DNA of 63,944 nt, counting the filler, from Stramenopiles sp. TOSAG23-6 (Eukaryota), in assembly GCA_900128565.1 (NCBI GenBank). It is 8 parts of 8 records of this genome, joined end to end, with 100 filler letters (N's around TTAATTAATTAA, not from the genome) between each part and the next. Parts side by side here need not be neighbours in the genome. Positions count along the whole stretch, not along the records: positions 1 to 11,822 come from LT636235.1; 7 more parts are not named here. The stretch is one strand, 5' to 3'. This document shows, piece by piece, positions 1 to 63,944 of this stretch. The position numbers were made by a program, and so were the translations under genes. Every line of letters starts with the position of its first letter. Within the stretch, counting starts at the first letter, position 1. The notes beneath the pieces were generated by a model. It saw only the letters and a program-made list of their open reading frames with translations. It was not told the origin of the DNA and searched no databases.

Positions 1-69
1 TGTTAGGTACAAAATTTCGTACGAAAAAAAAAATTCGATTTTTTTGTTAAAAAAATAAATAAAACATTC
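1..69 (-). mobile_element. Introner-like intron A (partial), apparent GA donor
   Basis: GAT|GAATGTTTT...TTTTCGTACGAAATTTTGTACCTAAC up to the contig end. Confidence 0.65.
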
Positions 70-1450
70 ATCATTATTCACACGTTGGTGGGCAGGAGCG
101 AAAGGAACTCGTGAGAGCGAGGATATCATTTTTGTGGAATGTTTTTTCTCGTTTGGGTTAGGGTTATATGATGTAGACTCTTTATTAGGGTTAGGGGACT
201 GATCTTCTACAATTGATGCTCTTGATAAAATGTATTTTGGAAAAATATTTCAGAAAAAAAATCGTTAGGTACAAAATTTCGTACGAAAAAAACAAATCGA
301 ATTTGAAAAAAAATAAAACGTACATATATTCACCTAAAAACACACCCGATTCTAGTGGCTTTAACAAAAAAAGTATGAAAAGTAATACAAAATATTCAGT
401 TATTCTATAAAAAAAAAGAATATTTGTTGAATAATAATCTTGTTTTCGTGCATGGTGTAGAGTGTTACGATTATATATGAAAAAGTAACCAATCAATAAT
501 GTATATCGAATTGAGCTATCAAAAAAGCATTCAGATTTTTCATTACATGCAGCTCCATTTTGTTTCCCACAAAATGTTGTTGTACAAATCCAACTAAGAC
601 CAATAAAGAGAAGCAAAATTATAGACAAATATACAAAAATGTATGCAATATTGTATGAAAATATCATAAAAAGCAATACTAAATGTACTGTACGGTGACA
701 AAGCTCAAATATTCTAATTATAGCCAATGATGATATAATAAATGTTTTCCCATCATTTTTAGGTTTCGTGCTTTTTCGTATTTCTGTGTCGTGTGAAATA
801 CTGATTTCCTCATTCATTTTACAATGACCAAAAAATTTCAAACTAAACAAATCAAACCACCATAATAAATATAATTCAGCAGATGACGTGTACCAGTCAA
901 GGAGTGTTAAAGCATATACATTGACAGCAAATGATTCAAGTAGTAAAGTCCAAAGTATGAGCTCACTGGATTGTGAAAACATATTTTTTTTAACTCGTTA
1001 CGTACAAAATTTCGTACAAAAACAAAATCAAAATTTAATTTTGAAAACATACGTGGTTGAGGAGGGCGAATAAAGTCCAGATGCTTTAAGTAATAGAAGC
1101 CAAAGTGCAGCTGACGAAATCAATATATTACCACAAAAGCTTAAAGAGATGAGCGGTACAATAAGTGAATTGATAAAAAAGCAAGACTTGTTTTTCTTGT
1201 TTTTACCCAGTAGTACAGACCTCTTACGACAAAAATACCACATTAATAAAATAGTCATAAAAATTACGCATATTGGGAATGTATAAGAAACTATGGACCA
1301 AGCATAAGCTACCATGAAGCTGTCACGGGGATCTGGAATATCCGATGTGTGTAGAATAATCAATGCAATGGTAGATGTAATGGTTATCGAAGAAATTAGA
1401 AATAAAGCAAGTTTCAAAGTCCATCGTCTACTTCCCTCAAGGTTTTGCAT
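70..1450 (-). CDS. Multi-pass membrane protein, 3' end truncated; exons 1053-1450, 324-965, 70-229
   Basis: Hydrophobic ORFs 1028..1450 and 191..982 join in frame once the family introns are removed; the frame continues into 70-229. Confidence 0.7.
230..323 (-). mobile_element. Introner-like intron B, GT-AT, 94 nt
   Basis: AT|GTACGTTTT...core motif...TTTTCCAAAATACAT|TTTA; removal gives an open frame. Confidence 0.8.
966..1052 (-). mobile_element. Introner-like intron C, GT-AG, 87 nt
   Basis: AC|GTATGTTTT...TTTTCACAATCCAG|TGAG; joins two ORFs. Confidence 0.85.
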
Positions 1451-1773
1451 ACTTAGTTATACTATTATAAAATGCACTCTCGTCTGCAAGTCACTCAAAT
1501 ACTGAAAACATATCGAGACTACAATGAATTGACAATAACTGGTAATGATTACTAGAAAAATATTTCTTCTTTGAGTTAAAAAATACTACAGTGAGGAATC
1601 TCTTGAGTCACGAAATCACGTGTTTCGTGTGATGAATGACACGTACCACATCGCAAAAATTGTATTTCCCTTTCTTTCCTTCCTTGAGTGACTGGCTTTT
1701 TGTTGCTTGTGCGTGTCAAGGTACTACAAATAAAATTAGTTAGTCATTACTAATTGGGTTTTAATACCCCATA

Positions 1774-4700
1774 ATGGCAAATGTGGAACTTCCTGGCCTT
1801 TCGTCATTTTGGCAAATGCTGGGTAAGAAACAAAAGCGAGATCTTATGAATGTGCAGCGCACTGCCGTTCTTTCTTATGTCACTTGTACTAATGGCTGTG
1901 GCGAATTACTAGAAGAAAGCTTGGACTACCTCACTCCTCAAATTGAAAATTTGAGTCGCTATATAACTATGCGTCTTCATCGCCTACCGAATGGCGAATT
2001 TAAAGCTGTTTCTTTTAGTAAGGGTATAAAGCCTAAGAAAAATGCGAGTTCTGGTGAACCTTTTGTTGACATCAAGCCGGACTCATTTTCTATTGTTAAC
2101 CCTGAAACTTTTGATCCGACTGCACCACCAGAGAGTTTGACCTTAGAATCGAAGAAGAAACAATTGTGCCTGACTAACAGTGATTCTTCACATACATCTA
2201 ATGACAAGCGTGTAACAGTTTCTAGTATGAATCCAAAAGAACGGAAAAAACATGAAAAGTGGTTAAGGCATTTGGAAAAGCGACAGAAGAAATGTTGTTG
2301 GTATTGTCGAGATAAACTTAACTTACACTTTATTGATATGCTAACTTACCCTCGACCAATAAGACAATTTGATTTGTTGGTCTCTGAATCAAGTAATATT
2401 GGTGATATTCGTGCGTTGATGGCTTCTGAAGTGAATATTGATGTGAATACTTTAATTTTGATATCAAAGGGGAAAAAGTTAGAAGATGACTCGCTAACCC
2501 TAGCCGATTTACGTTTTCGGAATAAACAAACTGTTATTTTATCTAAAACCATGCCTACAAATGCTGGAGGTACTCCAGGTTTGGAAGAAAAGAATAAACA
2601 ATTTGTAGGTGATTTACTATTTGGTCAGGCTGGTGTGGCTTGTGATCTTGGGGAAAGGTACGTTTTCATCATTCATTTTAAATGTTTTTTTCGTAGAAAA
2701 TTTCATACCTAACGATTTTCAAAAAAATATTTTTCACAATTACAGGGATGGGTCTGTTATTGATCGATTTAGAGTGATGCAGGGTAACCAATTATTAGGT
2801 TTAGCTATTGAAAAGGTACTACGTGGTCGTGTTTGTGATGCATGGCAGGCTGAAGTGCTTGCGCGGTCAAATGAATTAGCATGTACGTTTTAATTTTTTG
2901 AAACTCGATTTTTTTTTTGTACGAAATTTTGTACCTAACATTTTTTTTTTGAAATATTTTTCCAAAATACATTATTGAACTCTTTATTGGAGGATAAAAA
3001 GAATGAAATAAAAGACAAGACAAAATCAAATAAGAAGAAGAATAAAAAGAAAAAAGCCCGAGATAAAAAAAGAGATTTGGCAAAAAAGAGACAAAAAGCA
3101 GAAGAAGCTGCGGCAGTCTCTGAAGCACAGAAGAAAATGGAAGCTAAAAAAGCTCGCAAAGCTAGACAAGCTTTACTTAAAAGTGAACAAGAGGAAGCCG
3201 CAAAAGTAGTAAAAGAACGTCTCGAAAAAGAAAATGCAAAAAAACATGAAGAAAGACGTGCAAAAGCTGATGCTTTACGTCTCCAACTTCGAAAAGAAGA
3301 AGAAGAAAGAGTTGAACGTGAAGCGGCTGCATTAGCATTGCAACATATCATGGAAGAGGAGGAGGCTGCAAGAGTAGCAAAGCTTGAAACTGAAGCTAGT
3401 ACGTTTTCATCATGAATTTTATTTTTTTTTTTGGTTTTCATACGAAATTTTGTACCTAACAAAACAATTTTGAGTGTGTTTTTTTTTCACAATTTTATTT
3501 TTTTTTATTATTATGAAATTTTGAACCTAACAAATATTAAAAAAACAATGTGGTATATTTTTCACAGTGCATGGCGGAAAGAAAAGAAAAAAACAAAAAA
3601 AGCGTTAAAAAAGAAAATGTTTGAAGAGCAACAACAACAACAAAAACAAAAACAACAACAACAACAACAACAAAAACAACAACAATTCCACTTACAAAAG
3701 AATATTTCATCTAGCTGGGATAAAAACGTTGCACGAAATAGACCTGTGGCATCTGAAGAGTGGGAGAAATCTAGAGTTATCAAATGTAGTTCTTGTGGTA
3801 CATTAAATAAAACATCCGGGAATTTTTGCAGTAATTGTGGGACTCGATTACCTACTTCTCCAACACAACAACAAAGTTCGTTTTCTTCTCCACCACAACA
3901 ACAAAGTTCGTTTTCTTCACCACCACAACAACAAAGTACTATGACGAGAAATAAGGAACTTTTACAGTCTCAGGTACAAATTCCTACGAATGAATCTTTA
4001 GAACGAAATGATCGAAATGATTTATTTATTCTTCAGCAACAACAACAGCAAGCTTTGATTCAGCAACGACAATTGGCGATTCTTCGACGTCAACAACAAC
4101 AACAACAGCAACAACAACGTAAAACACAGCAATCTCAAAAAGGAATTTGGAATATGTCCAATCATCCAACGGCTTCCGCTATTAGTAGAACCGTAAACCC
4201 TAACCCGAATCATCAAGCGACTTCCGATATGAATAGGCCGAATCTTTTTCCACCTGGTTTTCCTTTGAAGAATAATGTTGGTGGATCTTTGGTGAATGCA
4301 AATTCTTCCATAATAGGAGGCTTTACAAATGAAAACAGTGTGATGAAATCTTCTGGTATTATTGGACATCGAATAAAAAGTGATGATGTTAGTCGTATAA
4401 ATGCTAATAAAGCGTTTAGGAATCATGGACTTGGTACTGCGCCCTTAGTCCAATATCCTATTGGCAACACTAGAAATTCAAATAAGAATAATCTTATTCC
4501 TAATCCTAACCCTAACCCGAATCCTATTGGCAACACTAGAAATTCAAATAAGAATAATCTTATTCCTAATCCTACAGCTGCGCTATTATTACCAACTTCT
4601 TTACGATCTGTATCGACAGGTCTACGTATGTTTTATATGAATTTCTAATTTAATTTTTCATACGAAATTTCGTACCTAACAAATTTTAGTTTTTTTTTTT

Positions 4701-5131
4701 AAATATTTTTTCACAATACATCTACTAGTCTATCTACTAGTCCAAAACATGATGCTGTACTCCCATTCTTTGAGCAGATGCGTTCTGGGAAAACATCTCA
4801 ACAGTATAATAGTTCGTTTTCTAGAAGAGACGATCCAGTCCATGCCCCGGTTAGATCTCCGGGTAGAGGAGTAAAAGATTTGTCACTCAATCTTGGGAAT
4901 GAGGGGATGGGTACTCAACAAATTGGAAATTCACTAGGTACGAAGTTTGGTACGAACTCAATTTCGAATATTGGTGTCCAATTGAATGCTCCGGTTGGGA
5001 ATATTGGTAATATTGGTGTTCCAGTGAATAATGCGTTATGTGATGATGTTACTACTAGGCAAGAGCCATTTGATCCAAAATTATTGAGCGTACCATTAGA
5101 TCAGTTAAAATACAATAGTCTTTTCTTTTGA
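1774..5131 (+). CDS. Ubiquitin-like domain, coiled-coil, zinc-ribbon, Gln-rich protein; exons 1774-2657, 2746-2882, 2973-3398, 3573-4625, 4722-5131
   Basis: Five ORFs join into one after removing four family introns; UBL-like LISKGKKLEDDSLTLADL, CxxC-CxxC ribbon, polyQ. Confidence 0.75.
2658..2745 (+). mobile_element. Introner-like intron D, GT-AG, 88 nt
   Basis: AG|GTACGTTTT...TACCTAAC...TTTTCACAATTACAG|GG. Confidence 0.88.
2883..2972 (+). mobile_element. Introner-like intron E, GT-AT, 90 nt
   Basis: GCAT|GTACGTTTT...TTTTCCAAAATACAT|TA; gives ELALLNSLL. Confidence 0.85.
3399..3572 (+). mobile_element. Introner-like intron F with internal duplication, GT-AT, 174 nt
   Basis: Two core/branch motifs; removal gives ETEARRKEKKK. 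Confidence 0.75.
4626..4721 (+). mobile_element. Introner-like intron G, GT-AT, 96 nt
   Basis: AC|GTATGTTTT...TTTTCACAATACAT|CT. Confidence 0.82.
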
Positions 5132-5310
5132 AATCATAATAAATCATAAAAAAAACAATACAATAGTCTTTTATTTTGTTAAACTCTTTACAATCTAAAT
5201 TTCACTACTTCATTTTACATTCCTATTATTATACATATTTTTACAACATTTGGTACGGATTAAATTTCGAAATTGATGAGTTCCGCATACAAAGACAAAC
5301 TCGTGATCAT

Positions 5311-8300
5311 TCAATACTCTGGGTTCCAAACCTTTTGGACTACTTCGGGTATGAATGAACTCGATGTTGAATCTAATTTTGGGGCTTTTTGCTTGTCATA
5401 CCAATTAGGATTAGAATTTGACATTGATGGATTTTGGAAAAATATTTAAATTTTGTTTTTGTTAGGTACAAAATTTCGTATGAAAACAAAATTCAAATTT
5501 GAAAAAAATTAAAACATACATGGATTGGATAGCGACCCGTTCGATACGTCACTCTGGCGACGAGAATGATCCCATTGATTAGTTTCACAGTGATTACCAT
5601 ACTGAGTATTTGAATATATATTCGTATTATAATTCATTTTAGACTTATGTTGCGGAAATCCTAAATCGTTCGCAGTATGACCAAATCCTTTAGAAGACGA
5701 ATATACACCAATAGATCGCCCACTAGACTGTATATTAGTTGAGTGTGAATTGTGTTGATGATAGGAAGGATAACTCCCTCTAAGGCTTTCATGATGATAT
5801 TGGCCCTGATTTTGATTATAAGAGGCATTCTGACTATTACAAAAACTAGACGATGTACCGTAACTATCACTGTGATCATTATTTCCATAATATTGTTCAT
5901 TCCTCCAAGTTTGAATATTATTAGAATGACTATTCCCACCAACTTCCTTTCGATACTGATAATCATTTCGATGGTCGTTTCGATGATATTGGTCAATCCC
6001 AGCATTAGTATTAGTGTTATGCGAACGAAAATTGAAATTACTTCTCTGAGAATTTTGATAATGATAATTATTAGAGTTAGTGTGATTATTACGATTTCTT
6101 CGACGATTCTCAAAACTTCCTCCTCCACGATACCCACCTCCACTATTTATTGAACTTTGGTCTCTGTTGTTTCTACTATAATGTGAGCGATCAACCTTGG
6201 AGCGATATGATCGATTCTCGTTATAGGACGAATTAGAAGACTTCATATCTTGTGCCCTAGGAAGACTTGGAGTATACTTTTTCATATGTTCAGTAGCATA
6301 TTGACATCCCTCGGGAAAGCCCCAGTATCGAAGCTTAATTTTTTTTCCTGATATAATAATTGAATTATTATTATTGAAACGATTCAATGCTTCTTTAGGT
6401 CCTCGGGAGTTTTGATAATGAGCAATACTAAATCCGTGTTCTATAAAATTTTCAACAGAAACCGCATGCTTAAAAATAATCTTTAGTAAACTAATTTCTG
6501 TATTCTGAGGGATATTGCCAATATACAGACAATTTGCAGAAGTATATCTTTGAGACGTTGAAGTATCTCCAACGGAAGAGGTCTTAGATAAAGGCTGAAT
6601 ATCTTCACCAAGTCCTTTCGCTTTCAGACAAATTTCCTTGTGCTCGCGAAAAATCGCCAATGCATTTTCTTTCATACTCATTTCACCAAGTACAAAATTT
6701 GGCCATGAGCCCTTAGGTCCATACTCTTGGCTGTAACGATTTGTTGCCAATACAACAGATTTCACTGCTCTGGCAATTGCACCATCTGTTAGATAAGTCA
6801 TTTCACCATCTTCGCTCACAGCTGCACGGATTCTTTGTTCAGTATAGCCTTTATTTACATCTACTGGTAATATGTTTAAGAGATCATTTGTTTGAGACGT
6901 GATAAATGAGTGTAAATTTCCTGCATCGTATATTTGAGCCTCGAAATCAGCGTATTTGGCTGTTCCAGAAGACCATTCTTTAGGTGGATGATTCTCGTTC
7001 CAGTGGGGAGTGTAATATGTTGTATTACCAGGGAAAAAATCTCCTCCACGAATTCCAGGATTCAAAACACATTTCACAAATTCATTAAATGAAGATATAG
7101 GTTGAGCTCCGCATTCTACAAGTGCCCAAAAAAGTGCATTTTGTACATTTATTCTAGTCTGAGGGGAAAGAGATGTTGAATTTTTTGACCCTTCTACATT
7201 TTTTGAATTAATATCTGTAGAATTTGATGAAGCAGGCTCGTTTACTCCAATTACAATCTGATTCTTTGGACTAGTTTTCACCATTGTTTGATATGGATTA
7301 TGAGCATCTGTATCATCAAATATTGATTTCGAAGATGACTTTGAAGCATTATTAATCGTAGTATTCATATAGGGAGGAGCTTCAGAAAATGATTCAGTAT
7401 TATTTCGATCTCTTGTCGTCGTATTCATGTAGGACAAAGATTCAGAAAATGATTCGGTATTATTTCGATTCATAATTTCATTTTGTGTCTCCTTGGTATT
7501 ATTTGGACCTACTGATTCAGTATTTAAACCTACATGTGTCTCATTTATATCAACATCAATCATACCATTTTTTTTAGAATCTTTCTTTTCTTCAAGTTTA
7601 CTCAAAACACCTTCAATTCGTTTTGAGAAATCGATCGACTTATCGAGCACTTCTTCTTCGTTATACCATTTAGCCTTTAGTAAAGGGTTATTCTTTTCAT
7701 TTACCGATAGATATGGCCAACGCTCGCCAGTAAGGGCTTCAATGAGTAAATCGCCGCGATCTCGACTAGATACTTCCAGAGTACAACTAAGAAAATTGCT
7801 ATTATCATACGGCTCTTCTATAAGCTGAACATTACCAAAACTTCCAAATGCACGAATTACTTGATGTTGAGAGGTCTTCGGGGGTAATCTCATAATGAGA
7901 ATCTTCTCTATCTTTTCAGAAGGACTTATATCATTCACAGTTGCTTTCTTTGTCACACTTACTTTATTTATCGTATTGTAAGCACCACCAATAGCACGTA
8001 AGGCAGACATAGAAGCGAGTTGAGCTGTTGATGATGCCAAGAGTGATGCAGACTTTGCACGTTCCATCTGCATAGCTACTGCGGCCGCGGCTTCTTTCTC
8101 TTTATCTCTCAAAATCGACGCAGCATTAGACGCGTTTAATGCTTTCCCAGCAGCTCTGAATGCAAAATGTGTTGCAAGACTTGATACAGAAGTTGCTAAA
8201 GATGATGCTGATGCTGCTTTGGCTGCTTCTAATTTTTCTAACTCGCGTTTTTTTAAAGCCTCTTCTTCCATTTGTTTTTGTAAAGCCTCTTCTTCCATTT

Positions 8301-11300
8301 GTTTTTTCAAAGCCTCTTCTTCCATTTGTTTTTTCAAAGCCTCGTCTTCCAATTGTTTTTTTCGAATTTTTTCAATCTTCGAACGCTGGATAGAACGAGA
8401 AGCACGATCAGAAGATCGAGATGCAGAACTAGATGCACTAAACGCTACTGATACTGCGTTTCGATTTGCCATCAATGATTCACGTTCTGCTACCTCAGCT
8501 TTCTTCTTAGCAATAGCAGCCGCACGTTTAGTCGCATCGGCAAGTTTCTTTAAAGCGTCATCTTTTTGTTTTTGTGCCTCTTCTACCGCAATTTGAGCTT
8601 CCGCTTCACGTTTCGCAGACTCAATTAGTTCTAATTCAGCTAAGCGACGTTTTTCTACAGCAAGTAGTTTTGCTTTACTTCGCTCAACTTTTTCAAATTC
8701 GCGATTTCTTTCTTCTTCACTTTTGTCATATTTAGCACTTTTTGCGGCTTTCACTGCAATCGCTTTTGCAATACACGCGAATTTTGCTGCATTAATTGCA
8801 ATAACACTCGCTAAACCTGCAATTCTAGATATTTCGCGTTCTTTTTTTAGCCTTGCCTCTTTTTGTTCTTTCGCTTTTTCAGCTGCCATTCTATCTTTTT
8901 TTTGCTTGAGTTTTTCCTTCTTCTTTTCAATTTTAGCTTTTCGTTTTTCCTCTTCAGCTAACAATTCTTTTTCAGCAAGGCTCGCTTTACTGGAAACGAC
9001 AGTTGGTCTGCCCGTAGTTTTGTCTTTTTTCTTGCCTCGTTTCTTCTTCTTTTTCATCTCAACAACCTTATTGCTAAGAAACTTTATGATATTCTCCTGT
9101 ACTTCATTACAATTATTATTTTCATTCCGCCTCGCATGCCAAAGAGCGGTATGTTTTTCGTCGTCGACGCGATCTATTCTAGCACCACTTTCAACTAATA
9201 ATTTCACGACACCAAATGAACCTGAAATACATGCAAGCATCAGACACGTATAGCCTATCGAGTTAACATAATTAATCTCAGCGCCGGATGAAATTAGTTT
9301 TTCCACAGTAGCAATAAAATGACCATTATCTGGATTTCCCATGCAAGCATTACCAAGAGCTGTATTCCCCAACACATCAACATCATCAATATTTTCATTA
9401 TCTATTTTAGATATAATAATATCAACAATTTCATCACGGCCATACCTAGCTGCATCCATTAATGCACTGTATTCATTATCAGTACATTTTATTTCTCCAC
9501 AGTCCGCACCAAAATCATTAATTAGCATTCGTACAATATCTGAACGGCCATACTGTATAGCATATGACAATACAGTACGCCGTTTATGATTGAACATATT
9601 TACACTAAAACCACAAGCTAAAATCACACGACATTGTGTTTCCACCCTTTTTAGATTTCCTTGTTCGATAGCATTAAAAATTGATACTTTAGCAGGATAT
9701 CCATGTAGTGAAGCTAATACAGACAACCTCTTCATCTTGTAGATTTCCGCGTCAAAGACGTTTTTGATTCCATCGGTGTCGAGAGTAGCATTTTCTCGCG
9801 CAAAATGAATCGTTTGTGAGAGACGTTTTAAAGAAAAACTTGACATATTATTTTTCCAAAATTCATTTTGAACTTTTTGTTGTTGGGCATATATCGTGGA
9901 TTTTGATGATGATCCAAACAAACAACACAAAGAGTGTTCTTCACAAGACCCTAGTATTTTATCTATTAAACCATCAGAGAGAGAAAATCCTTGATAAGCA
10001 AAAAGACAACGAAGAAGAGCAGAAAATAATAAAGTACGACGAGATGCCGCAACGTCTTCAGTGACTTTGGGATCACGAAGCTTTTCTTTATTCTCTCTCT
10101 TCTTTGCATCTGTTTTATCTCTACTTTTAGATTCATCATTGTCTTCGGATTTTTCTTTTGACTTTTCTTTCCCGTCTTTAGACGTTTCATCTTTATTTTT
10201 AAAAGATTTTGTGTTTTCCTTAGATTCTTTTTCTTTTCTATCCATTTCACCCTTTTCAATAGAATCATCATTTGTATTATTTTCTGATGTTTCCTTTTTT
10301 TTNAATGCTTCTTTCACATCTTTTTCTGTGAGTGTATTTACCTCCGTATATCCATTCCGATAAATAAATATTCGTGTAAAATCATCAGCTTTTGAAGAAT
10401 CGAGAGAATCTTGTACTGAATTAATAATTTCATTATCCTTTTTTGTCACAAATACGAAATCAGATAATGTTGAGACAGGTAATCCTATTATACACTCATG
10501 TAGAGATTTAGCACCAAAAATATATTTGAATATTGAATTCACATCCAAATTTAGAGAATATTTACCAATTGATAATTTAGTATTTGCGCGTTTAGTACGC
10601 CAAAGACAATACTTTTGAAGTACCTCCATCATTTTTCTCACATTACGGACATAATCACTATAAATAGACGAAACATTTCGATTTCGATATTTTTCCAAAA
10701 CTTGACCTATTTCAGCATCTGTGGCAATATCGGACATAATCACACCACTACTGATACAATTATAACCATCGCTGGACATTGTTAAAAATTCACTTGGGGT
10801 ATAATAATGGGTTTCAGAGCAGCTATCATTATAAAAAAGGCACGCTTTCAAACAACTTTTAATGATGGTATGTATCAATTTTGTAATTTCCTCTGATTTT
10901 GTTTTACATTTTAGTAATTGTAAAATCCAATAGAAATAAGACACCCACGAGTATCGAAGCAACATATTAGAGTTTTGTTCAAAATGTAATCGTATATCTT
11001 TCCATATATACTCACAATCGGGAGTTGCTATTGGCGAATACGAAACTTTTACTTTTGTACCATCATTTACAGATTCGACATCTGATGGAGGTATATAAAT
11101 ACCGCGCAGCGAATTCTCTCTAATAGATTCTGTGAGAGAATCTTCGATCTTATTTATATGACCTTCCACAAGTAAAATAGAAACAAACACTGAGATGATT
11201 GTCCTTTCCTTTTCGCTATTTTTTGGGGTTGTAGGAACAAAATATTTATTTGAAGTTTCTTTTTTCTCACGGGCAAGGATAGCTCCTGCTACACCAGTCT

Positions 11301-11766
11301 TTACCATGTATTGTGAAAAAACATTTTTTTTGATTTTTTTTTTGTTAGGTACGAAATTTCGTACGAAAAAAAAATTTAGATAAAAATTTGAAAAAAATAA
11401 AACATGCATGTGAACACTTCGACTTAGAACACTAACAGACTCTCGAATTTCATGTACGGTGGAAAAAGATTTCAAAATTTTTAAATTAGTTAGGTACAGA
11501 TTTTTTTACGAAAAGAAAAAAATAAAAAAAAAATAAATTAGAAATCGAAAACGTACATCATCTTTCAACATTTCTGATCCTTCTCCTTTTTCAATTTCTT
11601 GCATACCTTCATCAATAGATTGAGCAAGAAAAGAACCATAATTGTCACATGATGTTATTATGGCCTCAACACCATCAATTTTAACCTCCCAGTCTTCTAG
11701 AACAATATCATCAAACAAATCGTGAAACTCAGAAGAATCGAGAATTTTCTGAGTGATATAACGATG
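5311..11766 (-). CDS. Large ankyrin-repeat, coiled-coil, RRM-containing protein, 5' truncated; exons 11557-11766, 11408-11451, 5520-11305, 5311-5426
   Basis: Ankyrin repeats (TVLSYAIQYGRSDIVRMLI), RRM-like CLYIGNIP; 1988-aa ORF extended through family introns. Confidence 0.8.
5427..5519 (-). mobile_element. Introner-like intron H, GT-AT, 93 nt
   Basis: CCAT|GTATGTTTT...TTTTCCAAAATCCAT|CAATG. Confidence 0.78.
11306..11407 (-). mobile_element. Introner-like intron I, GC-AT, 102 nt
   Basis: CACAT|GCATGTTTT...TTTTCACAATACAT|GG. Confidence 0.8.
11452..11556 (-). mobile_element. Introner-like intron J, GT-AT, 105 nt
   Basis: GAT|GTACGTTTT...TACCTAAC...TTTTCCACCGTACAT|GAA. Confidence 0.8.
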
Positions 11767-11822
11767 ATGTATTTTGGAAAAATATTTCAAAAAAAATCTA
11801 AAAAAAATTGTTAGGTACAAAA
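11767..11822 (-). mobile_element. Introner-like intron K (3' part, ends AT)
   Basis: TTGTACCTAAC...TTTTCCAAAATACAT at contig end. Confidence 0.75.
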
Positions 11823-11922
11823 NNNNNNNNNNNNNNNNNNNNNNNNNNNNNNNNNNNNNNNNNNNNTTAATTAATTAANNNNNNNNNNNNNNNNNNNNNN
11901 NNNNNNNNNNNNNNNNNNNNNN
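11823..11922. other. Artificial contig linker (also 23742-23841, 35651-35750, 47546-47645, 59438-59537, 60941-61040, 62444-62543)
   Basis: Identical N44-TTAATTAATTAA-N44 with stops in all six frames; contigs in decreasing length. Confidence 0.97.
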
Positions 11923-11974
11923 TTCGTACGAAAAATAAATTCGATTTTTTTGTAAAAAAAAAAATAAAACATAC
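11923..11974 (-). mobile_element. Introner-like intron L (5' part)
   Basis: GGAT|GTATGTTTT...TTTTTCGTACGAA at contig end. Confidence 0.75.
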
Positions 11975-13548: not shown

Positions 13549-16374
13549 ATGTTTATGAATCAGAGTAACTTTTCAGATGGAGATTCTTCATCTGATGATC
13601 CTTTTGGAGACAGCCCGTCTCGAATTCGAAGCTCTGGAGCTCTAGGAGGTCGTTCAACACTATCAAATAGTAGTGGTCGTACCCCGTCCCCTCAAGCACC
13701 AACCACACCGGTGGGCAGTGGTGGAGCTTTTACGTATAGTGGTGGATTTAGTAGTAGCGGATTCTCTTCAAGAAAAAATCAAAAGTCATATTCTCATTCT
13801 TTACATGGCGAAAACGACGATGGTCCACCTGGTGATAATTTTGAACGATCTCAAAAGATGGAAAGACAACGCGAACGGGAAGCGAAGAAACAAACTGAAA
13901 GTTTAGGTAGTCGTTCTAATGGAGGTATTATGATGTCATCCACTGCAAAACCTCACCGACGACGTATCATGCAACAATTTTCAGCTCCTCGACGTTTTGA
14001 AGATGATTTTTCAGCACCTAAACGTAAAAGAGAGAAACCAAAAGCACCCGTGTTTGATCGACGTAACCGTTTTCAGGAATCTTCAAGCGATGATGATCAA
14101 AATGATTTTGATGAAGAAGAGACGACTGTTCGAAAAGTAAATAATCATAATAATAATAACGTTTCGCTAAATGGGGCATTTGGTAAGGCACTTTTTGTTG
14201 AAGACGAAAGTGTTCCTGATAATAAAAAAACACTTTCTGAATTGTTTGGCAAAGAACGAGGAAGAAAAAAAGAAAAAAGAGAGAAAAAAACTCGATCAAA
14301 AAAACCAAGGAGTACTTTTCAGAATGAGAGTAAACAAATTGTTGATAACCTCAAATCTACGTTCTTTGCTGATGAGGTTGTTTCATACAGGACTGGAAGT
14401 AAATCTCCAGTTATCGATCTAAGTCCTACTAGTGAGTCGAAAACAAAGGCATCAACTTTTAGTTCCTCCGACCGTAGAAAAAGACCAAAGCGCTCAAAAA
14501 GGCCGAAACGATCAAGTGGTCCTCCTCCTAACACAATAGATACGTTTTTTGATGATGATCAAAACGCTGGAAATACTTCAGTCACGATACAACTTCCAGG
14601 GATCAGAGATTCTAATTCAGATTCAGGTAGCGATGGAAGTGGTGTAAGTATTGTGACACCACCGGGGGAAAGGGGAAAAACGCCCCCTCGTAAACATTAC
14701 CACAAGCGCAATGATAATAGTAACGAAAATCTATCTGAAGATTCTAATGAACCAAAAAGATATAAAGGTTCACAAAGAAATTCTCGAACCAAAAGAAAGA
14801 ATTCATCAAATACAAAAGAAAAATATCACTACGGCGACAGAGAAAGCAATTCAAATTCTTTTAGTGCTGATGACTATGATGAAACCTCACAAGGAAAGAA
14901 AATACCTAAGCAACATGATGACAAATACGAAGCTTTGTACAAAAGTCGTCGAAGTCAAGAGAAACGCGACAATCGTAGGAATAAAAGACGCGATCGTGGT
15001 CCGAGAGAAAATAACAGGTATAACGACAAATCCAAAAAAAGTAATGCGGAACTTGAAAGAAGGGGACCAAGAGCCGAAAGAGCACTCACTGATAGTAACG
15101 ATAGTGATGATAGTTATCGCAGATCAAAGAAAAAGAAGAATACACGTCGAAGTCTGAGTGATAGTAACGATAGTGATGATAGTTATCGCAGATCAAAGAA
15201 AAAGAAGAATACACGTCGAAGTCTGAGTGATAGTAACGATAGTGATGATAGTTATCGCAGATCAAAGAAAAAGAAGAATACAAATGATAGTGATGATAGT
15301 TATCATAGATCAAAGAAAAAGAAGAATTCACGTCGAAGTCTGAGTGATAGTAATGATAGTGATGATAGTGATGGTAGTTATCATAAATCAAAGAAAAAGA
15401 CCAAAAAACGTTCACCAAAAGAGAGAAGTTCTCGTTCATCAAAGTCTGCTCGTCGTGAAGAATTTTCACCACCAGCAATGCAACCTGTAACTTTTAATTT
15501 TTCAAATATGAAAATATTTAATACAGCACCACCTCCTAAGAGGGCTGGTACTATAGAATGTTATATAGAAAGAAAGAAAAGCGGTCTTAAAAAAATGTAT
15601 CCTGAATATTATTTATATATGAAGAAAGGTCAACGATTTCTTTTGGCGGCAAAAAAACGTAAGAATAATAAGACTTCAAATTATAATATTACTTGGGCCA
15701 AAGAAGGTATAAAAAAACGAAAAAGTGCATCATTTATAGGAAAATTGAGATCAAATTTTGTTGGCACAGAATTTACTTGCTACGATGATGGCATCAACCC
15801 TAAAGATATAGATTCTGTCGACTATAATGGAGCAATGGGAGCAGTGAGGAAAGAGCTAGTAAGTATTCAGTATGCTTCGAATGTAATGGGTTCAAGGGGA
15901 CCAAGAAAAATGAAGGTTTGCGTACGTTTTCATCGTTAATTGTTTTCCTAAACTTTTTCCTTAGTAAATTTTGTACCTAACGTTTTTTTTTACGAAAAAA
16001 AAATATTTTTCACAAAACATGTACCTGCTGTAAAAAATGGCCGAGCAGAGATATTTAAACCATTGAAACGTTCGGAAGGTTTAGCTGCGAAAGCAAAACA
16101 ACAAGAATATAGTAATTGTTTTGTTCTTATTAATAAACCACCGCGCTGGAATGAAAATGTTGGGGCTTATGTATTAAACTTTTGTGGACGAGTGACAATG
16201 GCGTCTGTGAAGAATTTCCAATTAGTTTCACCAGATGATCATGATACAGTTGTATTGCAATTTGGTAGAGTAGGGAAGCATATGTTCACAATGGATTATC
16301 ACTGGCCATTGTCACCTTTTCAAGCATTCGCAATTTGTCTTAGTTCATTTGATTATAAACTAGCTTGCGAGTGA
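13549..16374 (+). CDS. Tubby-like protein; exons 13549-15921, 16021-16374
   Basis: Tubby motifs [42 protein letters not shown]. Confidence 0.92.
15091..15400 (+). repeat. 69-bp coding tandem repeat ([23 protein letters not shown])
   Basis: About 4-5 imperfect copies visible. Confidence 0.9.
15922..16020 (+). mobile_element. Introner-like intron M, GT-AT, 99 nt
   Basis: TGC|GTACGTTTT...TTTTCACAAAACAT|GTACCT restores [10 protein letters not shown]. Confidence 0.88.
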
Positions 16375-21547: not shown

Positions 21548-22366
21548 CTATAGTTCATGTTCATCTGCGCACTCTTTTGGATTTTCTAAGCAATCTCTAT
21601 AATATTCTGCTTTTCCCAGAATTTCACGCCTGTATTTTTGAAAAATATTTCACAAAAAAAAACGTTAGGTACGAAATTTCGTATGAAAAAAATATTCGAA
21701 ATTGAAAACAAATAAAACAAACATCATATTCTTTATATCATCGTTTTTGGCACAATCAGGAAGTTTATCTGTATGCGTTTGCAGTGCAATGTGTCGGTAT
21801 AACTTTTTTGCTTTTCTAAGGCTTCTTTTTCCAGGAGATAACCGACGAAGTTGAGCAAAATCACTGTAGTTCGAGGCTAGAAATTTCCAAAACTCTTTTT
21901 TGTTATCTACGTGTGTTTTATAGTGTAGGATCCACTGTTTATACAAAGTGCATCGCCCACGGTTTTCTCTCCGTCGACGTTTCTGGAGTTCGGCAGACTC
22001 AGATGTGTCCCCCGCAAGTCTGTCAAGTTCTGCTTGTTTATCGAGGCGTAACAATTCTTGCCTCTTTATGTCCTCCTGTGTACGATATTTTCGATCTTCC
22101 CATTCTGACACATCACACACAAAACCAATACTTTCAACCTTACTAGACTTACACTTTATTTTCTTTATCTCTCTTCCTAGTTTAATGACACGACCATAAG
22201 AGTCAAATACTGATGCATATTTTTCTAGAAAACGGGCTTTTGCCTTTTTTTTGGCTAGCCTTTTCAACACGGCAGATTTATTGACTGTGCCATTACAAAC
22301 AATCTCTATTGGATACTGAAGAAGGAAGATAAAAGACACGGTTAAAAATAAATTAAGAAGAAACAT
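21548..22366 (-). CDS. Putative ER-luminal protein with degenerate J-domain; exons 21723-22366, 21548-21629
   Basis: Hydrophobic N-terminus, KKLYRHIALQTHTDK, spliced C-terminus ADEHEL*. Confidence 0.7.
21630..21722 (-). mobile_element. Introner-like intron N, GT-AG, 93 nt
   Basis: AT|GTTTGTTTT...TTTTCAAAAATACAG|GCG. Confidence 0.85.
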
Positions 22367-23681: not shown

Positions 23682-23741
23682 GTACGTTTTTTTTCGTACG
23701 AAATTTTGTACCTAACAATTTTTTTTAGATTTTTTTTGAAA
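23682..23741 (+). mobile_element. Introner-like intron O (partial, short variant)
   Basis: CTAT|GTACGTTTTTTTTCGTACGAAATTTTGTACCTAAC. Confidence 0.78.
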
Positions 23742-23841
23742 NNNNNNNNNNNNNNNNNNNNNNNNNNNNNNNNNNNNNNNNNNNNTTAATTAATTAANNN
23801 NNNNNNNNNNNNNNNNNNNNNNNNNNNNNNNNNNNNNNNNN

Positions 23842-23942
23842 GAAAAATATTTCAAAAAAAATTCTAAAAAATTTGTTAGGTACAAAATTTCGTACGAAAA
23901 ATAAATTCGATTTTTTTGTTGAAAAAAAAAAATAAAACGTAC
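23842..23942 (-). mobile_element. Introner-like intron P in HSP70 (partial)
   Basis: AAAT|GTACGTTTT...core...GAAATATTTTTC at contig end. Confidence 0.82.
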
Positions 23943-27909: not shown

Positions 27910-30900
27910 ATGGAGTCTAAAAGAGAAAGACTTGCAAGATTAACTAGTGAGAGAAGTACTGTAGACAAAACGTCGAAAACAAATACGTTTGATTCAACAG
28001 ACTCAAAAGATAATGAAACTACAAATATATCAACAACCAAAATACCATTGGCAACAAATGACGAGGCAGCACAACCAACGATAGAAACAAAGACTAATAA
28101 ACAAAAAATCCCTCAAAATACGGATCTTGTTGTCAATACAAAGAGTGTAGCAAAGAAGAAAGAAACCGTTAAAAATGTTGTCGATACAAAGGCTACCACA
28201 AAAAAAAAAGATATAAGAAAACAACCTCGATCCAATACGGCTGATTCCAATGACACAAAAAATGACACAAAAAAACCTACTTTAAATCCTTCAAAAACTC
28301 AAACTTCAAATGCTAACAATAGTAAACAAGATAAACCCAAAACAACACTTGATACAAAAGACTCCAATAAAAACAAAACAACACTTAATACGGATAAAAA
28401 AGTCCCAAATAAACGACTTCAATCAAGTCAATGGAAAACTTCTTGGGGTTATAAAAGTTCCGGTTGTCTTTGTATGCCTTTACAAAGTTGTTGGATTTCA
28501 TTTGCAAAGAGACTTGTTGGAAAATTTGGTATGTCAAGACAAGAAAGTCAAAAAAATCTTTTAGATAGAGAATTTGGTACGTCTGAATGGATCAAAAATA
28601 AAAATGTAACTGACAATTCAGAACAATCAGAACATTCAGAACAATCAGAACATTCTTCNAATNAAACNAAAANTTGNTTTTATNAATACTGCACGATACA
28701 ATACAATGAAAAAGATTTTCCCAGGTGGTAAAGAAGAATCCCAAAAAAAAAATTGGTTTTGTATCCGAATCCATTCAACTGATGCATTACCATTGACAGA
28801 GTTTCTTCGCGAACCTGTTGTGAAAGTTCACATTGTCAATGCAATGACTGGTGAATATATTTCTAAATCAAATTTAACTTCAAAAAATGAATTTTTTAAA
28901 AAAGGAAACAATGAAAATGAACATAAAGAAACAGAAGAAGATGGAATACGAAATGAATTTGGAGTGATAAGTCGAACTGAAAATGCTACATGTATAAAAA
29001 CAATGGCAAATGTACGTTGAAAATATTTAAAAAGAAAAAAAAAAACTCAATTTTTTTTTCGTACGAAAATTTGTACCTAACAAAAAATCCAAATTTTTTT
29101 TTTTTCACAATATATGGAAAACGCGTTCGAAAAGAAAGCTATTGTACAATCATAACACCAAATATGACTCAATGTTCTACTATTTCAAAAAAGACAAGAT
29201 CTGCTATATGGAATGAATCTCTTTATTTTAGATGTCCAATAGAAAATATTTTAAGTCCAAATATAATCATATTTTTTGAACTTTTAGATCGAGGTAATAC
29301 GATAAATCGAAAACTTACATATGCAGGACGTGGTTATGTATCTTTAGCATGTACGTGTTTATCATTAATTTCGACTTTTTTANTTTTTTTTTANTTTTTT
29401 TTTNGGTATGAAATTTTGTACCTAACGATTTTTTTTAATTTTTTTTTTTTTCACATTACATGGGGATTTCTGCGTCCTCTGGCCATCGGTGGACATCCTT
29501 ATATTGGAGAAAAAGACACGATCCGTCGTATTCAATTATTCAAACATGTAACACTTGGTCGACTGGCGAGAGCTCAGCAATGTAGTTCTGCAGTAGGAGC
29601 TGGAAATCCAACTTTAGTTCCAGATGTGTTTTTTCAATATAAGTTACTGAAAAAGCGCAAATCATTTACATCTTTATTAAATGTCTCGATCTTTCCAAGT
29701 GAAAACCTCGTTGACAAAAATGTTTCATATAATCCAACCATGCCACATGAGTTAGAAGTTATGCCATCGAATGAAACGTATTACGAGAATAGTGTTTCTC
29801 CAAAAGCTAGAATGACTACTATTCCAGTTGACCATGTTGAAAAAGAAAAAAAGATGAGTTCTTTACGATTACGCAGATTTCGTGGTAAAGACAAGCCATG
29901 TTTACTTCCTGATCGATTGTTACATCGAATCCCTACAAACTCTACACTAGGTTGTCTTACTTTATTATTTTCACCAAATGGTCGAATTCTTGCCGCGGCT
30001 TGTGTTGATGGTACTACATACCCAATACGATTGTATGACGTTCAAAGTGGCGCTTTGCTAGATTCTCTCACTGGTCATTTAGGCCTAGTGCACTCTATGG
30101 TGTGGACAGGGGGTAGTCTTAGTGAGGTTGTTGAATTATTATCTGCATCTGCAGATGGCACTTGTAAAATATGGAACTCACCTGCTTCATTAGAAAGTAT
30201 GAATGGATTTGGGAGTGGCACAGTGAAAACGAATAATGACTCGGGTAATGGAGAAGCAAAAGGATTTAGAACACAATTATTACAGCAAACATTAAAACAT
30301 CCTACAGCATCATTTGTGTATTCAGCAATAATGCATCCTATGTATCACTTACGATTAGCTGTAACAGCAGCATCGGATTCACAAATTAGACTCTGGAATG
30401 TTGATACAGGTTTGAGTATAGGAAGTATCGGGTCAAAATCAAATCTTCCACATAAATCACATGTTAATTCCATTATTTTTGATAGAAAGGCAAGAAAACT
30501 ATTCAGTGCTGATGGTGATGGAATTTTAGTTGTCTGGCGAATTACTGGTACTCCAAGTGAGACTGGTTCTTATCAATTAGTTAGAATCATCTCAAAATAT
30601 CAAAATTGCTCAATACTTAATTTAGTAGCAAAACCAGATACGAATGATTTTGCTATTCTTGCCCAGAGCAGTATTTTACGAATTCACGAAATGCTTTCAC
30701 CTTATAAAGAAGTAAAACTTCTTCGTGGCTTCAAGTGCAATGAATCAACTGATACTCAATGTTGTTTCTCACCTGATGGACAGTTTGTACTTAGCGGAGC
30801 TGAAGATGGAAATGCTCACTTGTGGGAGACAAAAAAGGGTAGGAGACTTGGTGGTGATCAATGGGAGCTCTTTTTATCAAATGGGATATCTGGAGTAGCT

Positions 30901-35598: not shown

Positions 35599-35650
35599 GT
35601 ATGTTTTATTTTTTTTTCAATTTCGAATTTATTTTTCGTACGAAATTTTG
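35599..35650 (+). mobile_element. Introner-like intron S (5' part)
   Basis: ATAT|GTATGTTTT...TTTTTCGTACGAAATTTTG at contig end. Confidence 0.78.
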
Positions 35651-35750
35651 NNNNNNNNNNNNNNNNNNNNNNNNNNNNNNNNNNNNNNNNNNNNTTAATT
35701 AATTAANNNNNNNNNNNNNNNNNNNNNNNNNNNNNNNNNNNNNNNNNNNN

Positions 35751-54256: not shown

Positions 54257-54570
54257 TTTATTCTTTGCGAACTTTTGGAATTACTTTTTACAACTTTTAC
54301 AACACACTGGCTATATGAACGGCAGGTTGCAGGTAAGCTGACCAATTATTTAGGTATGAAATTCTCTATGAAAAAAAAGGCAAGTTCGGAGAATTTCACG
54401 TGCACAAACATGTTCTGATGATCCTCATTAATTTCATACGTTACTTTCAGGTTAGCTAATTGTGTGAATTAACGTTTTTCTGTTAGTAAGACACTTTCAC
54501 ACAAACGGTCATATCCTCTATCTAATTGCCATTTTAGAAATTTCAAGACTAATTCATATTTAAGTGTAGC

Positions 54571-55365
54571 ATGGTTGGATTCACAGTTATTGGAACGAAT
54601 CTGGAAATGGAGAAAAAGTCAAGGTATAAAAAGAGGAAACAAGGAAAACGTTGGGGCTGCAAATTTGTGGATAAGAAGTCTGGTATTTCTTGTACGAAGA
54701 AGGCACAAGGCGCGTCAACATTTTGTTGCGCACACGGAGGAGGCAACCGTTGTCAAGTTAAAGGATGTACAACAAGTGCTAGAGGAGCAAAGAGCGGAAG
54801 ATGCATGCGACATGTTTGTTGTCCACTTTCATTTCAAATTTATTTCTTTTTCACGCTTTTCCATAGAAAATTTCTCACTAAACAATTTTTAGTTTTTTAC
54901 TTTTTCACAATACTTGGTGGTGGTCGAAGGTGTGAAATGAAAAACTGTTGTAAAGGCGCACAGGGTCGAACTCCTTACTGTATTGCCCATGGAGGTGGGC
55001 GGAGATGCTCTTTCCTAAATTGTGATAAAGGAGCCACAAATAAAGTAAGTTGTGCAAAAAGTTTATGCAAAAGGCACACTCGACTAGAAGAAGAGAGAAA
55101 GAAAAAAAACGGAAAAAAAGAAATGAAGTTTGATCAAATAGAAAAGAAGACACTAAAACGTCAGTTACCCGATGACATATCATTCTCTCAAATTCAGCAG
55201 CCCTTTAAACAGACACGAGTCAATTCAATCAACTGTGAGAGTATTCAACTTCATGATTTTTCAAATGCAAATTGTTTTGGAGACTGGCAAATATTTGGAA
55301 TGAATGAACTGATGAAAATTGAAAAACTTATGAATGATGCGCAAAATATCGCAGTGATCACTTGA
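54571..55365 (+). CDS. WRKY19-like (CxxHGGG repeat) zinc-finger protein; exons 54571-54813, 54916-55365
   Basis: CCAHGGGNRC, CMRH|GGGRRC, CIAHGGGRRC. Confidence 0.82.
   Translation: MVGFTVIGTNLEMEKKSRYKKRKQGKRWGCKFVDKKSGISCTKKAQGASTFCCAHGGGNRCQVKGCTTSARGAKSGRCMRHVCCPLSFQIYFFFTLFHRKFLTKQFLVFYFFTILGGGRRCEMKNCCKGAQGRTPYCIAHGGGRRCSFLNCDKGATNKVSCAKSLCKRHTRLEEERKKKNGKKEMKFDQIEKKTLKRQLPDDISFSQIQQPFKQTRVNSINCESIQLHDFSNANCFGDWQIFGMNELMKIEKLMNDAQNIAVIT
54814..54915 (+). mobile_element. Degenerate introner-like intron T, GT-TT, 102 nt
   Basis: CAT|GTTTGTTG...TTTTCACAATACTT|GGTGGTGGT restores HGGG. Confidence 0.8.
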
Positions 55366-56356: not shown

Positions 56357-59300
56357 TTACTCTTTATCATCTTGTTTTTCTGAAGGTAAAGTGCTCACAC
56401 TGGAAGGTCGACCAGTAGTTATAGGTGATTCAATAGATTTGGAGTCTACAGAAATGTCTAGTTCACTTTCTGTTACTTCTCTTCCACCTGATGCTAAAGA
56501 TGCGTCTAAGTTAGAGTCATAATCATATCTATTGTCCAAACTATTCCTCCCACCTAGTCCTACTGAAGAATTAGCGGGTGATTCCAATTCACCCCGTTTC
56601 ATACCTAAAGTATTTCTCGTCAAACCTAAACTTAAATCATCATTAAATTCGGAGAACATTGATGCATCACTTTCTTTATCATCTTTTTTATGTTTTTGAA
56701 CAATTCTGTCTGCGGCTTTCTCCAATGAAGTCGATGACTGAAGCCCTCCTAAGTAGTTTTGATCACCTGCGCTATCTAGTGCAATACTATCATTTAAATA
56801 TTGACTACTGTCAAACGACGACATTGGACCTATACTGTTACTAGTATCCATACTGAGACCAATATTATTTTCATCAGTAGACAATTTCTTTTGATGACCT
56901 TTGGAAAATTTTTCCTGAAGATTTTTCTGGATCTCAAAAAGTTGTTTCTCTCGCTCTGCCATTAATTTTGACATAAATTCTTCATGCTTACGACGTTCCA
57001 TAAGAAGTTTTTCATCAGTTTCGCGTCTAATCTTTTGAACCATAGATTCTTGTTGATGGCCATGACGACGGACCATTTCATCCTCTAACTTCTGTTGCGC
57101 ACGAACAAAAGCAAGACGTTCCTGCAATTCTTGATCACGGAGCATCATTTCATGCTCAATTAGACGATGTTTTGCATGCTCTTTTTCAAGTTCCACCATT
57201 TGCTTTGATACCGATTCTTCATCTGCAATAATCTTTTGAGTCTCTTCGCGATGCATAGTACGTGTAGCTTCTTCCCACTGACGACGTTTTTGGTCTGCTT
57301 CAAGTTTTTTTAAACGTTCGTTCCACTGCTTAGTTTTTTCTTCATGAGCTTCACGAGTTTTTTTTAATCTTTCTGTGCGCTCTTCATTACGCTTTTTTAA
57401 AGCTTCATTGCGATCATCAATTAATTTTTGTTGCTCGCGTTGCTCTTCTTCAAGTAATACCTTCTGTGCTTTTTCACGTTGCTGAACCTGCATTTGTGCT
57501 ATCTTCAATTCATCTTCGGCTGAATGACGAAGTCGTCGCTCACGTTCAATTGCTGCCATTTTTTCTGAATGCTTGGCGCGTTTTGCTTGCAATTGAGCCA
57601 AAAGACCTCGCTGTACCTCGATTTGTTGATCGACCTGTAACATTTGTTGTTGTTTTTCCAATTCAATGCGTCGCCTTAATTGTCGTTCTTCGTCCTCCGC
57701 GCGCCAAGCCTCATGGGTTGCCTTATCCTCCTTTTCTAATACATCAAGTTGAACCTGAATTTGACTACGCATATCATGCAGATTCTGCTGCTGCATAGCC
57801 TCTTCTTGTAATTCGGCGATTCGTTGGTCACTCTGGAATTCAAGATTTTGTAACGCTTCTTCATCACGTAAACGATCTACATCTTTTTTATTATTTATCT
57901 GTTGAGTTTCCAACCAAGTTGAAAGTTCTTCTGCATTAGCCTCCATACGAAGTCGGGTATTGCGCACTGCTTCAACTGAAGATTTCTCACGCGCACCGAG
58001 ATGTTCAAGTCTTCGTAGACGCATCTTATGTGCTAGGTCATTTTGCTCTTCAGTGAGTTTTGCATTGATCTCAGAATCTTTTTCAATTCTTCGCTTCTCT
58101 GTGATATCTAGAAGTTCCCTAGTTCGCTGCAATTTTTTTCGTTCTTCCTCCATTTCTTTAGTGATTTGAGCCAACGCATTGAGCTTTCTCTGTTGTCCTT
58201 CCACGCGCGATTGTTCAGCTTCTATCTGTTTTCGTCTTGCAGCTTGAAAATCAACGACTGCTTTTGGAAAACCAATGAATAATGGATATTGCCCACGCGA
58301 CAATATTGGTTCAATACTGCTGCCCGCACCACCACATTTACCTAGATCTTCTTCTACAGCAGAAGGAATTTCTTTTGATGTACGAAGTAATAATTGGGAC
58401 ATTTTCCACAAACGTCTCACATCAATAGCATTCTGTCGTCTCAGAAATTGACGAACTTCTTCAGCCGTATGACAGCCAAGTAATGCAGTTCGAAAAATAC
58501 GAATATATGCAAGAGCACATAATGGAAATAAGCTTGGTTCTCTCCAATTAGCTATGAGATTATCCCATAATTTTAACCATTGGGGTCGGGTGAGAACTTC
58601 TGAAAATGCACTCTGTAACATCGGCCAGCAATATTCATCAGCAGCGATTCCAATATCTGTAAAGTGACGATGAAGAGTAGCATCATGAGAAATAAGGCAT
58701 CGCTCAAAACTTTCTAGCAATACTACAGGAGGACCTGGCATATTGGCATACCAGCCTTTACACCAATGCATAAGAACACACGACAATAATTCAAATGAAA
58801 CAACATCATCAGAAGTAGATGTTGTCTTCACAAATGGGAATGATAGGACTGGGAGATAGGGTAATTCAGCGAATACAGGCGACCAATGACCCAATGCTGA
58901 TAAAATTCGTTGTAATCTAGCAAGCAATCGTCTGTTCTTTATCGGGTACCTGTCGGATAATGATTTAAATGCAGGGTGTATACCTCGCTGTCTAAGAGCA
59001 TCAAATGCAACGCGATTTTCTGGAAGTCTCAATAGAAATCGCCAACATAAAAGTCGATGTTTTACGGGAAATGTATTTTGGAAAAATATTTGAAAAGTTT
59101 TTTCGTTAGGTACAAAATTTCGTACGAAACAAAATTCGAATTTGAAAAAAAATAAAACATACATTCACCATGGCTTGATAATAATCTAAGTAGTGACTCC
59201 TCATTGATATTCGACTCCGCGTCAGATACTCTGGTCAGTCTATGTAGTGGTGGATTGGCTTTGGGTTCAAGAAAATTTTCTTCCTCCTTGATTATAACAT

Positions 59301-63851: not shown

Positions 63852-63944
63852 GTATGTTTTCATCATGAATTTCAAATTTATTTATTTTTTCATACGAAAT
63901 TTTGTACCTAACAAATTCTATTTTTTTTTGAAATATTTTTTCAC
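63852..63944 (+). mobile_element. Introner-like intron V (partial)
   Basis: ATAT|GTATGTTTTCATC...TACGAAATTTTGTACCTAAC...TTTTCAC. Confidence 0.8.

Follow-up and report, generated by a model that had tools for sequence, protein, structure and literature searches.

The DNA analysed here (the window) is a stretch of 63,944 nt from Stramenopiles sp. TOSAG23-6, eukaryotic, with a GC content of about 0.29-0.43. Positions 2881-2972 of the window hold one copy of a repeated, intron-like element, in which AT, GTACGTTTT, TTTGTACGAAATTTTGTACCTAAC, GAAATATTTTTCCAAAATAC and a second AT follow each other in this order. The first AT (2881..2882, + strand) is exonic and stands ahead of the donor, as an AT does at 16 of 21 donors of the family. 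The candidate intron itself (2883..2972, +) is 90 nt long, runs from GTACGT to ATACAT and has AT as both its upstream and its terminal dinucleotide (AT/AT in the notation used below); it was recognised by its match to the family profile and by the open frame left after exact removal. Its conserved core (2919..2939, +), defined by invariant alignment columns, comprises a small stem, GTACGA/TTGTAC, and a branch-like motif, TACCTAAC (2932-2939). TTTGTACCTAAC occupies 2928-2939 and CCAAAATAC follows ahead of the terminal AT. The putative branch A is 34 nt from the 3' end. A near-perfect 12-bp palindrome lies just 5' of the branch motif, here for example at 2916-2927 and as TTTCGTACGAAA in most copies, and the tetramer GTAC is repeated within copies: it stands at the 5' end, again within the core and the branch region, and in some copies at the 3' end too.

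Exact removal of this copy left 91 and 147 open codons on its two sides, while reading through it met a stop after 3 codons. Past the branch motif, the first AG stands at +20, in the wrong frame. No canonical pair using the family GT donor gave 30 open codons on each side; the sole canonical pair that did so used a GC donor 4 nt upstream.

The copy was one of many. In a motif scan of the window, GTACGTTTT with at most 1 mismatch was found 40 times against 19.7 expected, and TTTGTACCTAAC with at most 2 mismatches 30 times against 7.1 expected. A profile made from 11 seed copies gave 21 matches at E<1e-3, and a profile rebuilt from 13 copies recovered the identical set together with a diverged copy at 54814-54915. 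The total of 21 loci used here counts as one the copy that the gap at 11823-11922 divides in two. These loci were spread over at least 12 different genes bearing open reading frames (ORFs), and all 21 were in sense orientation to the gene. Copy lengths ranged from 87 to 174 nt, most being 87-111 nt, and pairwise identity between copies was 53-85% (median 69%). An independent metagenome contig, L003, carried one further copy with AT/AT flanks; on its minus strand, an ordinary-looking donor, CAAG/GTAAGT (slash at the boundary), lies about 80 nt past the copy. A metagenome scan with the 19-nt core returned 4 loci, of which 1 was a true copy, and a scan of viral sequences for more copies gave 0 matches. 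A scan of prokaryote genomes gave a single locus (L005), at which a Bacteroidales metagenome-assembled genome matches a short part of the core; this was taken as chance. That the stretch belongs to an introner, a family of repeated intron-like elements, is well supported.

The copies share a donor, GTAYGT, then a conserved core whose last bases are TACCTAAC, a T-rich tract and an end in ACAT. Conservation was strongest in the internal core of about 25 nt, which combines the 12-bp palindrome with the small stem beside the branch motif, and the putative branch A lay 32-42 nt from the 3' end across copies. The dinucleotide ahead of the donor was AT in 16 of 21 copies, as the first-pass annotation had counted, and AC in 2, AG in 1, TA in 1 and GC in 1. 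By comparison, AT preceded GT at 306 of 3055 positions (10%) in the long ORFs of the window, against 15 of 20 copies (binomial P ~1e-11). Of 21 copies, 16 had a readable 3' end and 5 were cut by gaps or window ends; as had also been stated in that annotation, most of the readable ones ended in AT (12), with AG in 3 and TT in 1. The last six bases had the consensus ATACAT, and in an alignment of 13 copies position -2 was always A and position -3 nearly always C, which makes the 3' end resemble a CAG acceptor with T replacing G.

Removal was evaluated by reading frame in 16 complete copies, 15 in the window and the one on L003. Exact removal from the donor G through the terminal dinucleotide kept the frame open for 27 codons or more to either side in 16/16, including 5 copies whose length is not a multiple of 3; by-eye reading of the translation through the element met a stop or frameshift in 13/16. 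For the 13 copies without an AG end, the first AG past the branch motif was frame-compatible in only 2, at +9 for the copy at 230-323 and at +48 for the copy at 29351-29461. No canonical pair whatever gave 30 open codons on each side at 29351-29461 or 59071-59162, and canonical GT-AG alternatives were possible at few copies only.

Homology supported the same joints. In a Tubby-domain gene, the copy at 15922..16020 (+, 99 nt, GC/AT, GT donor) interrupts a region where 11 homologues with 50-59% identity aligned without gaps across the joint, through the segment RKM.V-x-VP. The homologues have C, M or A at the joint residue; removal from G of the donor through the final T (register 0) gives C, and a register shifted by two bases, with AT-AC ends, gives Y. 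In a WD40 gene, the copy at 29351..29461 (+, 111 nt, AT/AT) splits a motif that is contiguous in two homologues as AWG[FY][IL]RP, the window reading LA, a split W codon and GFLRP; this contiguity excludes use of the AG at +48. The best protein match of the WD40 exon had 42% identity, and its best named relative was a brown alga; proteins from same-species transcripts were not found for this exon (best 42%) or for the Tubby exon (best 59% identity), and the protein searches with the two exons brought up no close relative. The third case was the diverged copy in a gene of zinc-finger repeats (54814..54915, +, 102 nt, AT/TT, AT followed by GTTTGT and ending in ACTT). The repeat unit C..HGGG.RC is intact twice beside this copy, and only the joint that sets H directly before GGG restores it. 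Exact excision at the element boundaries, which would leave one AT in the mRNA, is therefore well supported by frame and homology.

The first-pass annotation had pointed out that GT-AT, TG-CA and AT-AC registers give the same mRNA where both ATs are intact. This holds, and the registers are separable at copies with discordant flanks. In register 0 the donor was GT in 15 and GC in 1 of the 16 copies. In the -2 register the ends were AT-AC in 10/16, the rest being AC-CC, AG-AC, TA-GC, AC-AC, GC-AC or AT-AT. The GT or GC donors in 16/16 copies, together with the failures of the -2 register at discordant copies, favour GT...AT as the putative splice register.

A minor-type (U12-like) spliceosome, or one that tolerates AT-AC ends, would account for those 10 copies by removing them in the AT-AC register (ATGTAY...ATAC), but we consider this improbable. 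Long and strongly conserved 5' and branch motifs, as in this family, are a feature of minor introns according to a review. Blastocystis, itself a stramenopile, has hundreds of minor introns, the majority of them AT-AC, and a rare minor type with GT-AT ends is known, according to bioRxiv 10.1101/2022.09.24.509304. Against this, four copies would have AC-CC, TA-GC, GC-AC or AT-AT ends in that register, the zinc-ligand His at 54814-54915 would become Leu, and the Tubby joint would carry Tyr in place of Cys, Met or Ala. The signals themselves also differ from those of minor introns. The first-pass annotation had held that the donor departs from the U12 consensus RTATCCTT, and comparison of this consensus with GTAYGTTT or ATGTAYGT bore it out, with 5-6 of 8 positions matching and no CC. 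The donor likewise has no ATCC core, a T-rich tract is present, and 32-42 nt separate the branch A from the 3' end, a distance that is shorter in U12 introns. Judged by these sequence signals, the family is not U12-like. A search of the window against Rfam gave 0 hits.

Two ordinary introns of the form GTAAGT...AG were recognised in the window, in an annotation that was not exhaustive: one in the HSP70 gene (~24474-24621, -) and one in the EF2 gene just past the start codon (44692-44903, -). With their branch-like motifs, CTCAAC and GACTAAC, these introns are unlike the repeat family. As both end in AG, the AT end belongs to the repeat family.

Two metatranscriptome runs (X1 and X2) from one seawater sample, holding 13-17% of words, were available as contigs only. 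Run contigs matched unique exons exactly at a depth of 2-7 (window 1-11822), so the organism or a near-identical strain was present in that sample. About 1500 contigs per run matched element copies at >=90%. The summed depth in element-bearing bins was 270-4600, a value that is not a copy number and was taken only as a sign of numerous distinct copies. The seawater sample is rich in RNA of many element copies, or in contaminating DNA of them.

The element was also translated as coding sequence in three public proteins (P0094-P0096), recognisable by peptides such as FVRNFVPN. Each protein had two or three copies, and several starts fell at an ATG formed by the upstream AT and the G of the element. 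A word search turned up these 3 proteins, and a scan of 1.84 billion representatives gave only 3, too few for a flank statistic. The window ORF at 56357-59164 (-) is a similar case of the element read as coding. Two of the proteins are EukProt entries and one is an ORF from an ENA metagenome. The labels of the two EukProt entries appear to denote a MAST-3 marine stramenopile. The window encodes DUF4116 and WRKY19-type zinc fingers, which are common in stramenopiles. The host is probably near MAST-3, at taxon level only.

On balance, we lean toward an introner that is spliced GT...AT by the spliceosome and whose AT pair is most simply explained as a trace left by insertion at AT, likely a 2-bp duplication. 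In such a scheme a non-autonomous element of about 90-110 nt, present in high copy number, would act as a spliceosomal intron, one that interrupts most genes, in a marine stramenopile-like protist. It would bring its own donor GTAYGT, of the type used by the major spliceosome, the ~25-nt core with TACCTAAC, the T-rich tract and the end in ACAT. The intron would leave the transcript from the G of GTA to the final T, so that a single AT is kept in the mRNA, and the acceptor would be CAT rather than CAG in roughly three quarters of the copies and CAG in few. The likeliest source of the AT pair would be a 2-bp duplication made by a cut-and-paste transposase, the downstream copy having been turned into the acceptor. 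That the major spliceosome routinely uses a CAT acceptor made by transposon AT duplication, and that such copies are now most of the introns of the genome, is a further-reaching proposal which we put forward tentatively.

Several observations weigh against this explanation. As to splicing, no intron-skipping joint was found in the contigs of the two runs, where exon depth was 2-7 and only copy-to-copy chimeras appeared, and one contig spans from within the intron at 2658-2745 into the exon. The copy at 230..323 (-, 94 nt, AT/AT) may still use the in-frame AG 9 nt downstream as a canonical end, and the GT-TT ends of the copy at 54814-54915 are hard to fit to any known rule. As to origin, the upstream and terminal dinucleotides were concordant in 10/16 copies, against 8.4 expected by shuffling (P=0.15), and 6 pairs differed. 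The low identity between copies means that they are old and that their flanks may have drifted. When ATGTAYGTTTT at one end of the element was compared with the reverse complement of AAAATACAT at the other, 5-6 matches were contiguous, and 9 were reached by allowing a 2-nt gap. RNAalifold gave 0 pairs for the consensus RNA structure, and single folds had z-scores of -1.7 to +0.4, no better than shuffles. No transposase domain was found in the 32 ORFs of the window, and no copy was intergenic or antisense in the window, of which long ORFs make up 81% and ~19% lies outside them.

These points bear unequally on the claims of the first-pass annotation, which had described a MITE-like (miniature inverted-repeat transposable element) insertion with 2-bp duplication. 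The repeated intron-like element and the single retained AT are borne out, but the duplication and the MITE origin are not demonstrated by the flanks (P=0.15). The annotation had named a lack of genome-wide correlation between the two dinucleotides as grounds for rejection, and the concordance figures above bear on this at the scale of the window. The imperfect inverted repeat it reported is real, but short: the longer form occurs in the CCAAAATACAT subfamily only, and the CACAATACAT subfamily has only ATGTA(T), which leaves the repeats below the ~10 bp expected of a MITE or DNA transposon with terminal inverted repeats.

With the gap-split copy included, flank concordance was 11/17, and it was 1/5 where the upstream dinucleotide is not AT, the concordant copy having AG on both sides. 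Eight flank substitutions would reconcile duplication with the data, and the data do not require duplication. Since AT is self-complementary, three histories are indistinguishable: the AT was duplicated, the inverted repeat extends 2 bp further, or an element-borne AT lies beside an AT-specific target; an empty site would look alike under all three. The same ambiguity is stated in the methods of Gozashti 2022 (PMC9860276).

The same introner could be excised in the same way with no duplication having taken place, an element-borne end in CAT having been inserted after AT, or an RNA having been reverse spliced, with both ATs nearly fixed. This is possible, and we judge it less likely. It would agree with a flank concordance at chance level and only 1/5 among the non-AT copies, with 21/21 copies being genic and sense and none intergenic, and with the lack of a long inverted repeat, conservation peaking at the splicing signals and core and not at the termini. 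However, reverse splicing is expected to favour ordinary exon junction contexts and not AT, and the AG/AG copy fits duplication. A weak hint in the same direction comes from the second copy in P0094, which has an Arg codon (second base G) before it and a Val codon (GTN) after it, where AT is expected. A 2-bp AT duplication and a MITE origin are plausible, with precedents in the AT duplications of ISL2EU transposons and in the duplication-derived non-AG acceptor of Fritillaria, but unproven.

Removal without the spliceosome was also considered, either as excision of DNA or as structure-guided removal of RNA of the kind proposed for euglenid nonconventional introns. Non-AG boundaries, a 2-bp direct repeat and retention of one repeat copy would suit it, and some DNA-elimination junctions do keep one copy of a short direct repeat. 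The conserved donor, branch motif and T-rich tract, however, are signals of splicing; the stable pairing of ends that marks hairpin-type introns was not seen (0 pairs with RNAalifold), and element sequence is abundant in contigs from RNA libraries. We give this explanation very little credence, and from the conserved signals we infer removal by the major spliceosome.

The remaining copies in the window, recognised by profile match and, where complete, by frame, varied in their ends. The copy with AG on both sides, mentioned by the first-pass annotation, was located at 2658..2745 (+, 88 nt, AG before GT and an AG end). Two other copies have an AG end: the one at 966..1052 (-, 87 nt, AC before GT, canonical end) and the one at 21630..21722 (-, 93 nt, AT before GTTTGT). 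A composite copy at 3399..3572 (+, 174 nt) has TA before GT and ends in GCAT. Only the AT end at 3572 is in frame, keeping a frame of 410 amino acids; a CAG at 3567, 5 nt earlier, is out of frame. This copy amounts to one and a half units and has two branch motifs, the second being GAACCTAAC. Discordant flanks were also seen at 4626..4721 (+, 96 nt, AC before GT, AT end). Copies with AT upstream and an AT end were those at 5427..5519 (-, 93 nt, ending CCAT), 11306..11407 (-, 102 nt, the one with a GC donor), 11452..11556 (-, 105 nt, ending GTACAT), 29012..29115 (+, 104 nt, ending ATATAT) and, in a TBC/RabGAP gene, 59071..59162 (-, 92 nt).

Incomplete copies were recognised by profile match. 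One is truncated at the window start (1..71, -, AT before the donor GAATGT) and one at the window end (63852..63944, +, AT before GTATG). The gap-split copy (11767..11974, -) has AT before GTATG on one side and an end in ATACAT on the other, and its halves presumably belong to a single copy. The 5' parts of three more enter gaps, at 23682..23741 (+, AT before GTACG), at 23842..23942 in the HSP70 gene (-, AT before GTACG) and at 35599..35650 (+, AT before GTATG). Gap fillers of 100 bp (44 N, a 12-base all-frame stop linker and 44 N) lie inside copies at 11823-11922, 23742-23841 and 35651-35750, from which it appears that the assembly broke at the repeat. On the two sides of 23742-23841 both parts are 5' halves, one on each strand and pointing towards each other, which implies missing sequence at this gap. 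Upstream of an ankyrin gene, at ~54300-54410 (-), a weak profile match (E=0.003) has AT followed by GTTTGTGC, then TTTCATACCTAAAT and an end in CATATAG; this is possibly a degenerate member of the family, with an AG end, in a 5' leader.

If RNA confirms the joints, the family would provide a large number of naturally occurring GT-AT introns whose other signals are of textbook type, on which the choice of 3' splice site could be tested in a new lineage, and it would be a further case of a mobile element imposing its own end on the splicing machinery. These matters are relevant to research on intron gain and on 3' splice-site choice. Gene finders that expect AG cannot remove such elements, which probably distorts the gene models and the gene counts of such genomes.

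Introners, and non-canonical introns derived from transposons in Fritillaria and Amoebophrya, are already known. Introners of Micromonas, Aureococcus, dinoflagellates and others, as described in PMC9860276 and PMC12130899 (Gozashti 2022 and 2025), resemble the present family in forming many similar short intron copies in unrelated genes with a bias for genes and sense orientation, in supplying one splice site while the flank may supply the other, and in lacking coding capacity. They differ in the acceptor, which here is AT in 12/16 copies and not AG. The same sources indicate that introner surveys begin with annotated introns and discard mainly non-canonical families lacking RNA support; an AT-ended family such as this one would therefore be missed. 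No paper linking introners with MAST or MAST-3 was found in a literature search that covered articles and not supplements, which possibly hold intron tables, and the accessible parts of two single-cell genome papers (PMC5778133 and bioRxiv 10.64898/2026.04.17.719054) do not mention such introns.

Among transposons, ISL2EU elements of the PHIS superfamily likewise have a 2-bp target-site duplication, typically AT, according to PMC4122938. Their inverted repeats usually start with GG, and they were found in animals only in the survey of PMC4482050, whereas the ends here are GTA...TAC. The introner elements of Amoebophrya are also introns present as repeats, their ends are likewise non-canonical, and direct repeats border them, but they have inverted repeats of 8-20 nt folding into hairpins, direct repeats of 3-5 nt and highly variable termini (PMC7789003). 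The present family, in contrast, has no hairpin and one dominant terminus.

The putatively MITE-derived introns of the marine tunicate Fritillaria borealis share further features with the present family. PMC11282704 and PMC13326754 propose the duplicated target as the non-AG 3' end and report removal of these non-canonical introns by the major spliceosome; in the first, the non-AG acceptors are said to have arisen from a duplicated exonic TAC. If the CAT acceptor is real, a protist would have arrived independently at a counterpart of the Fritillaria introns in which donor and branch site are normal and the 3' rule alone is relaxed. The termini in that tunicate are AG-AC or AG-AT after exonic TAC, whereas in the protist described here the GTAYGT donor is standard and the acceptor alone is odd.

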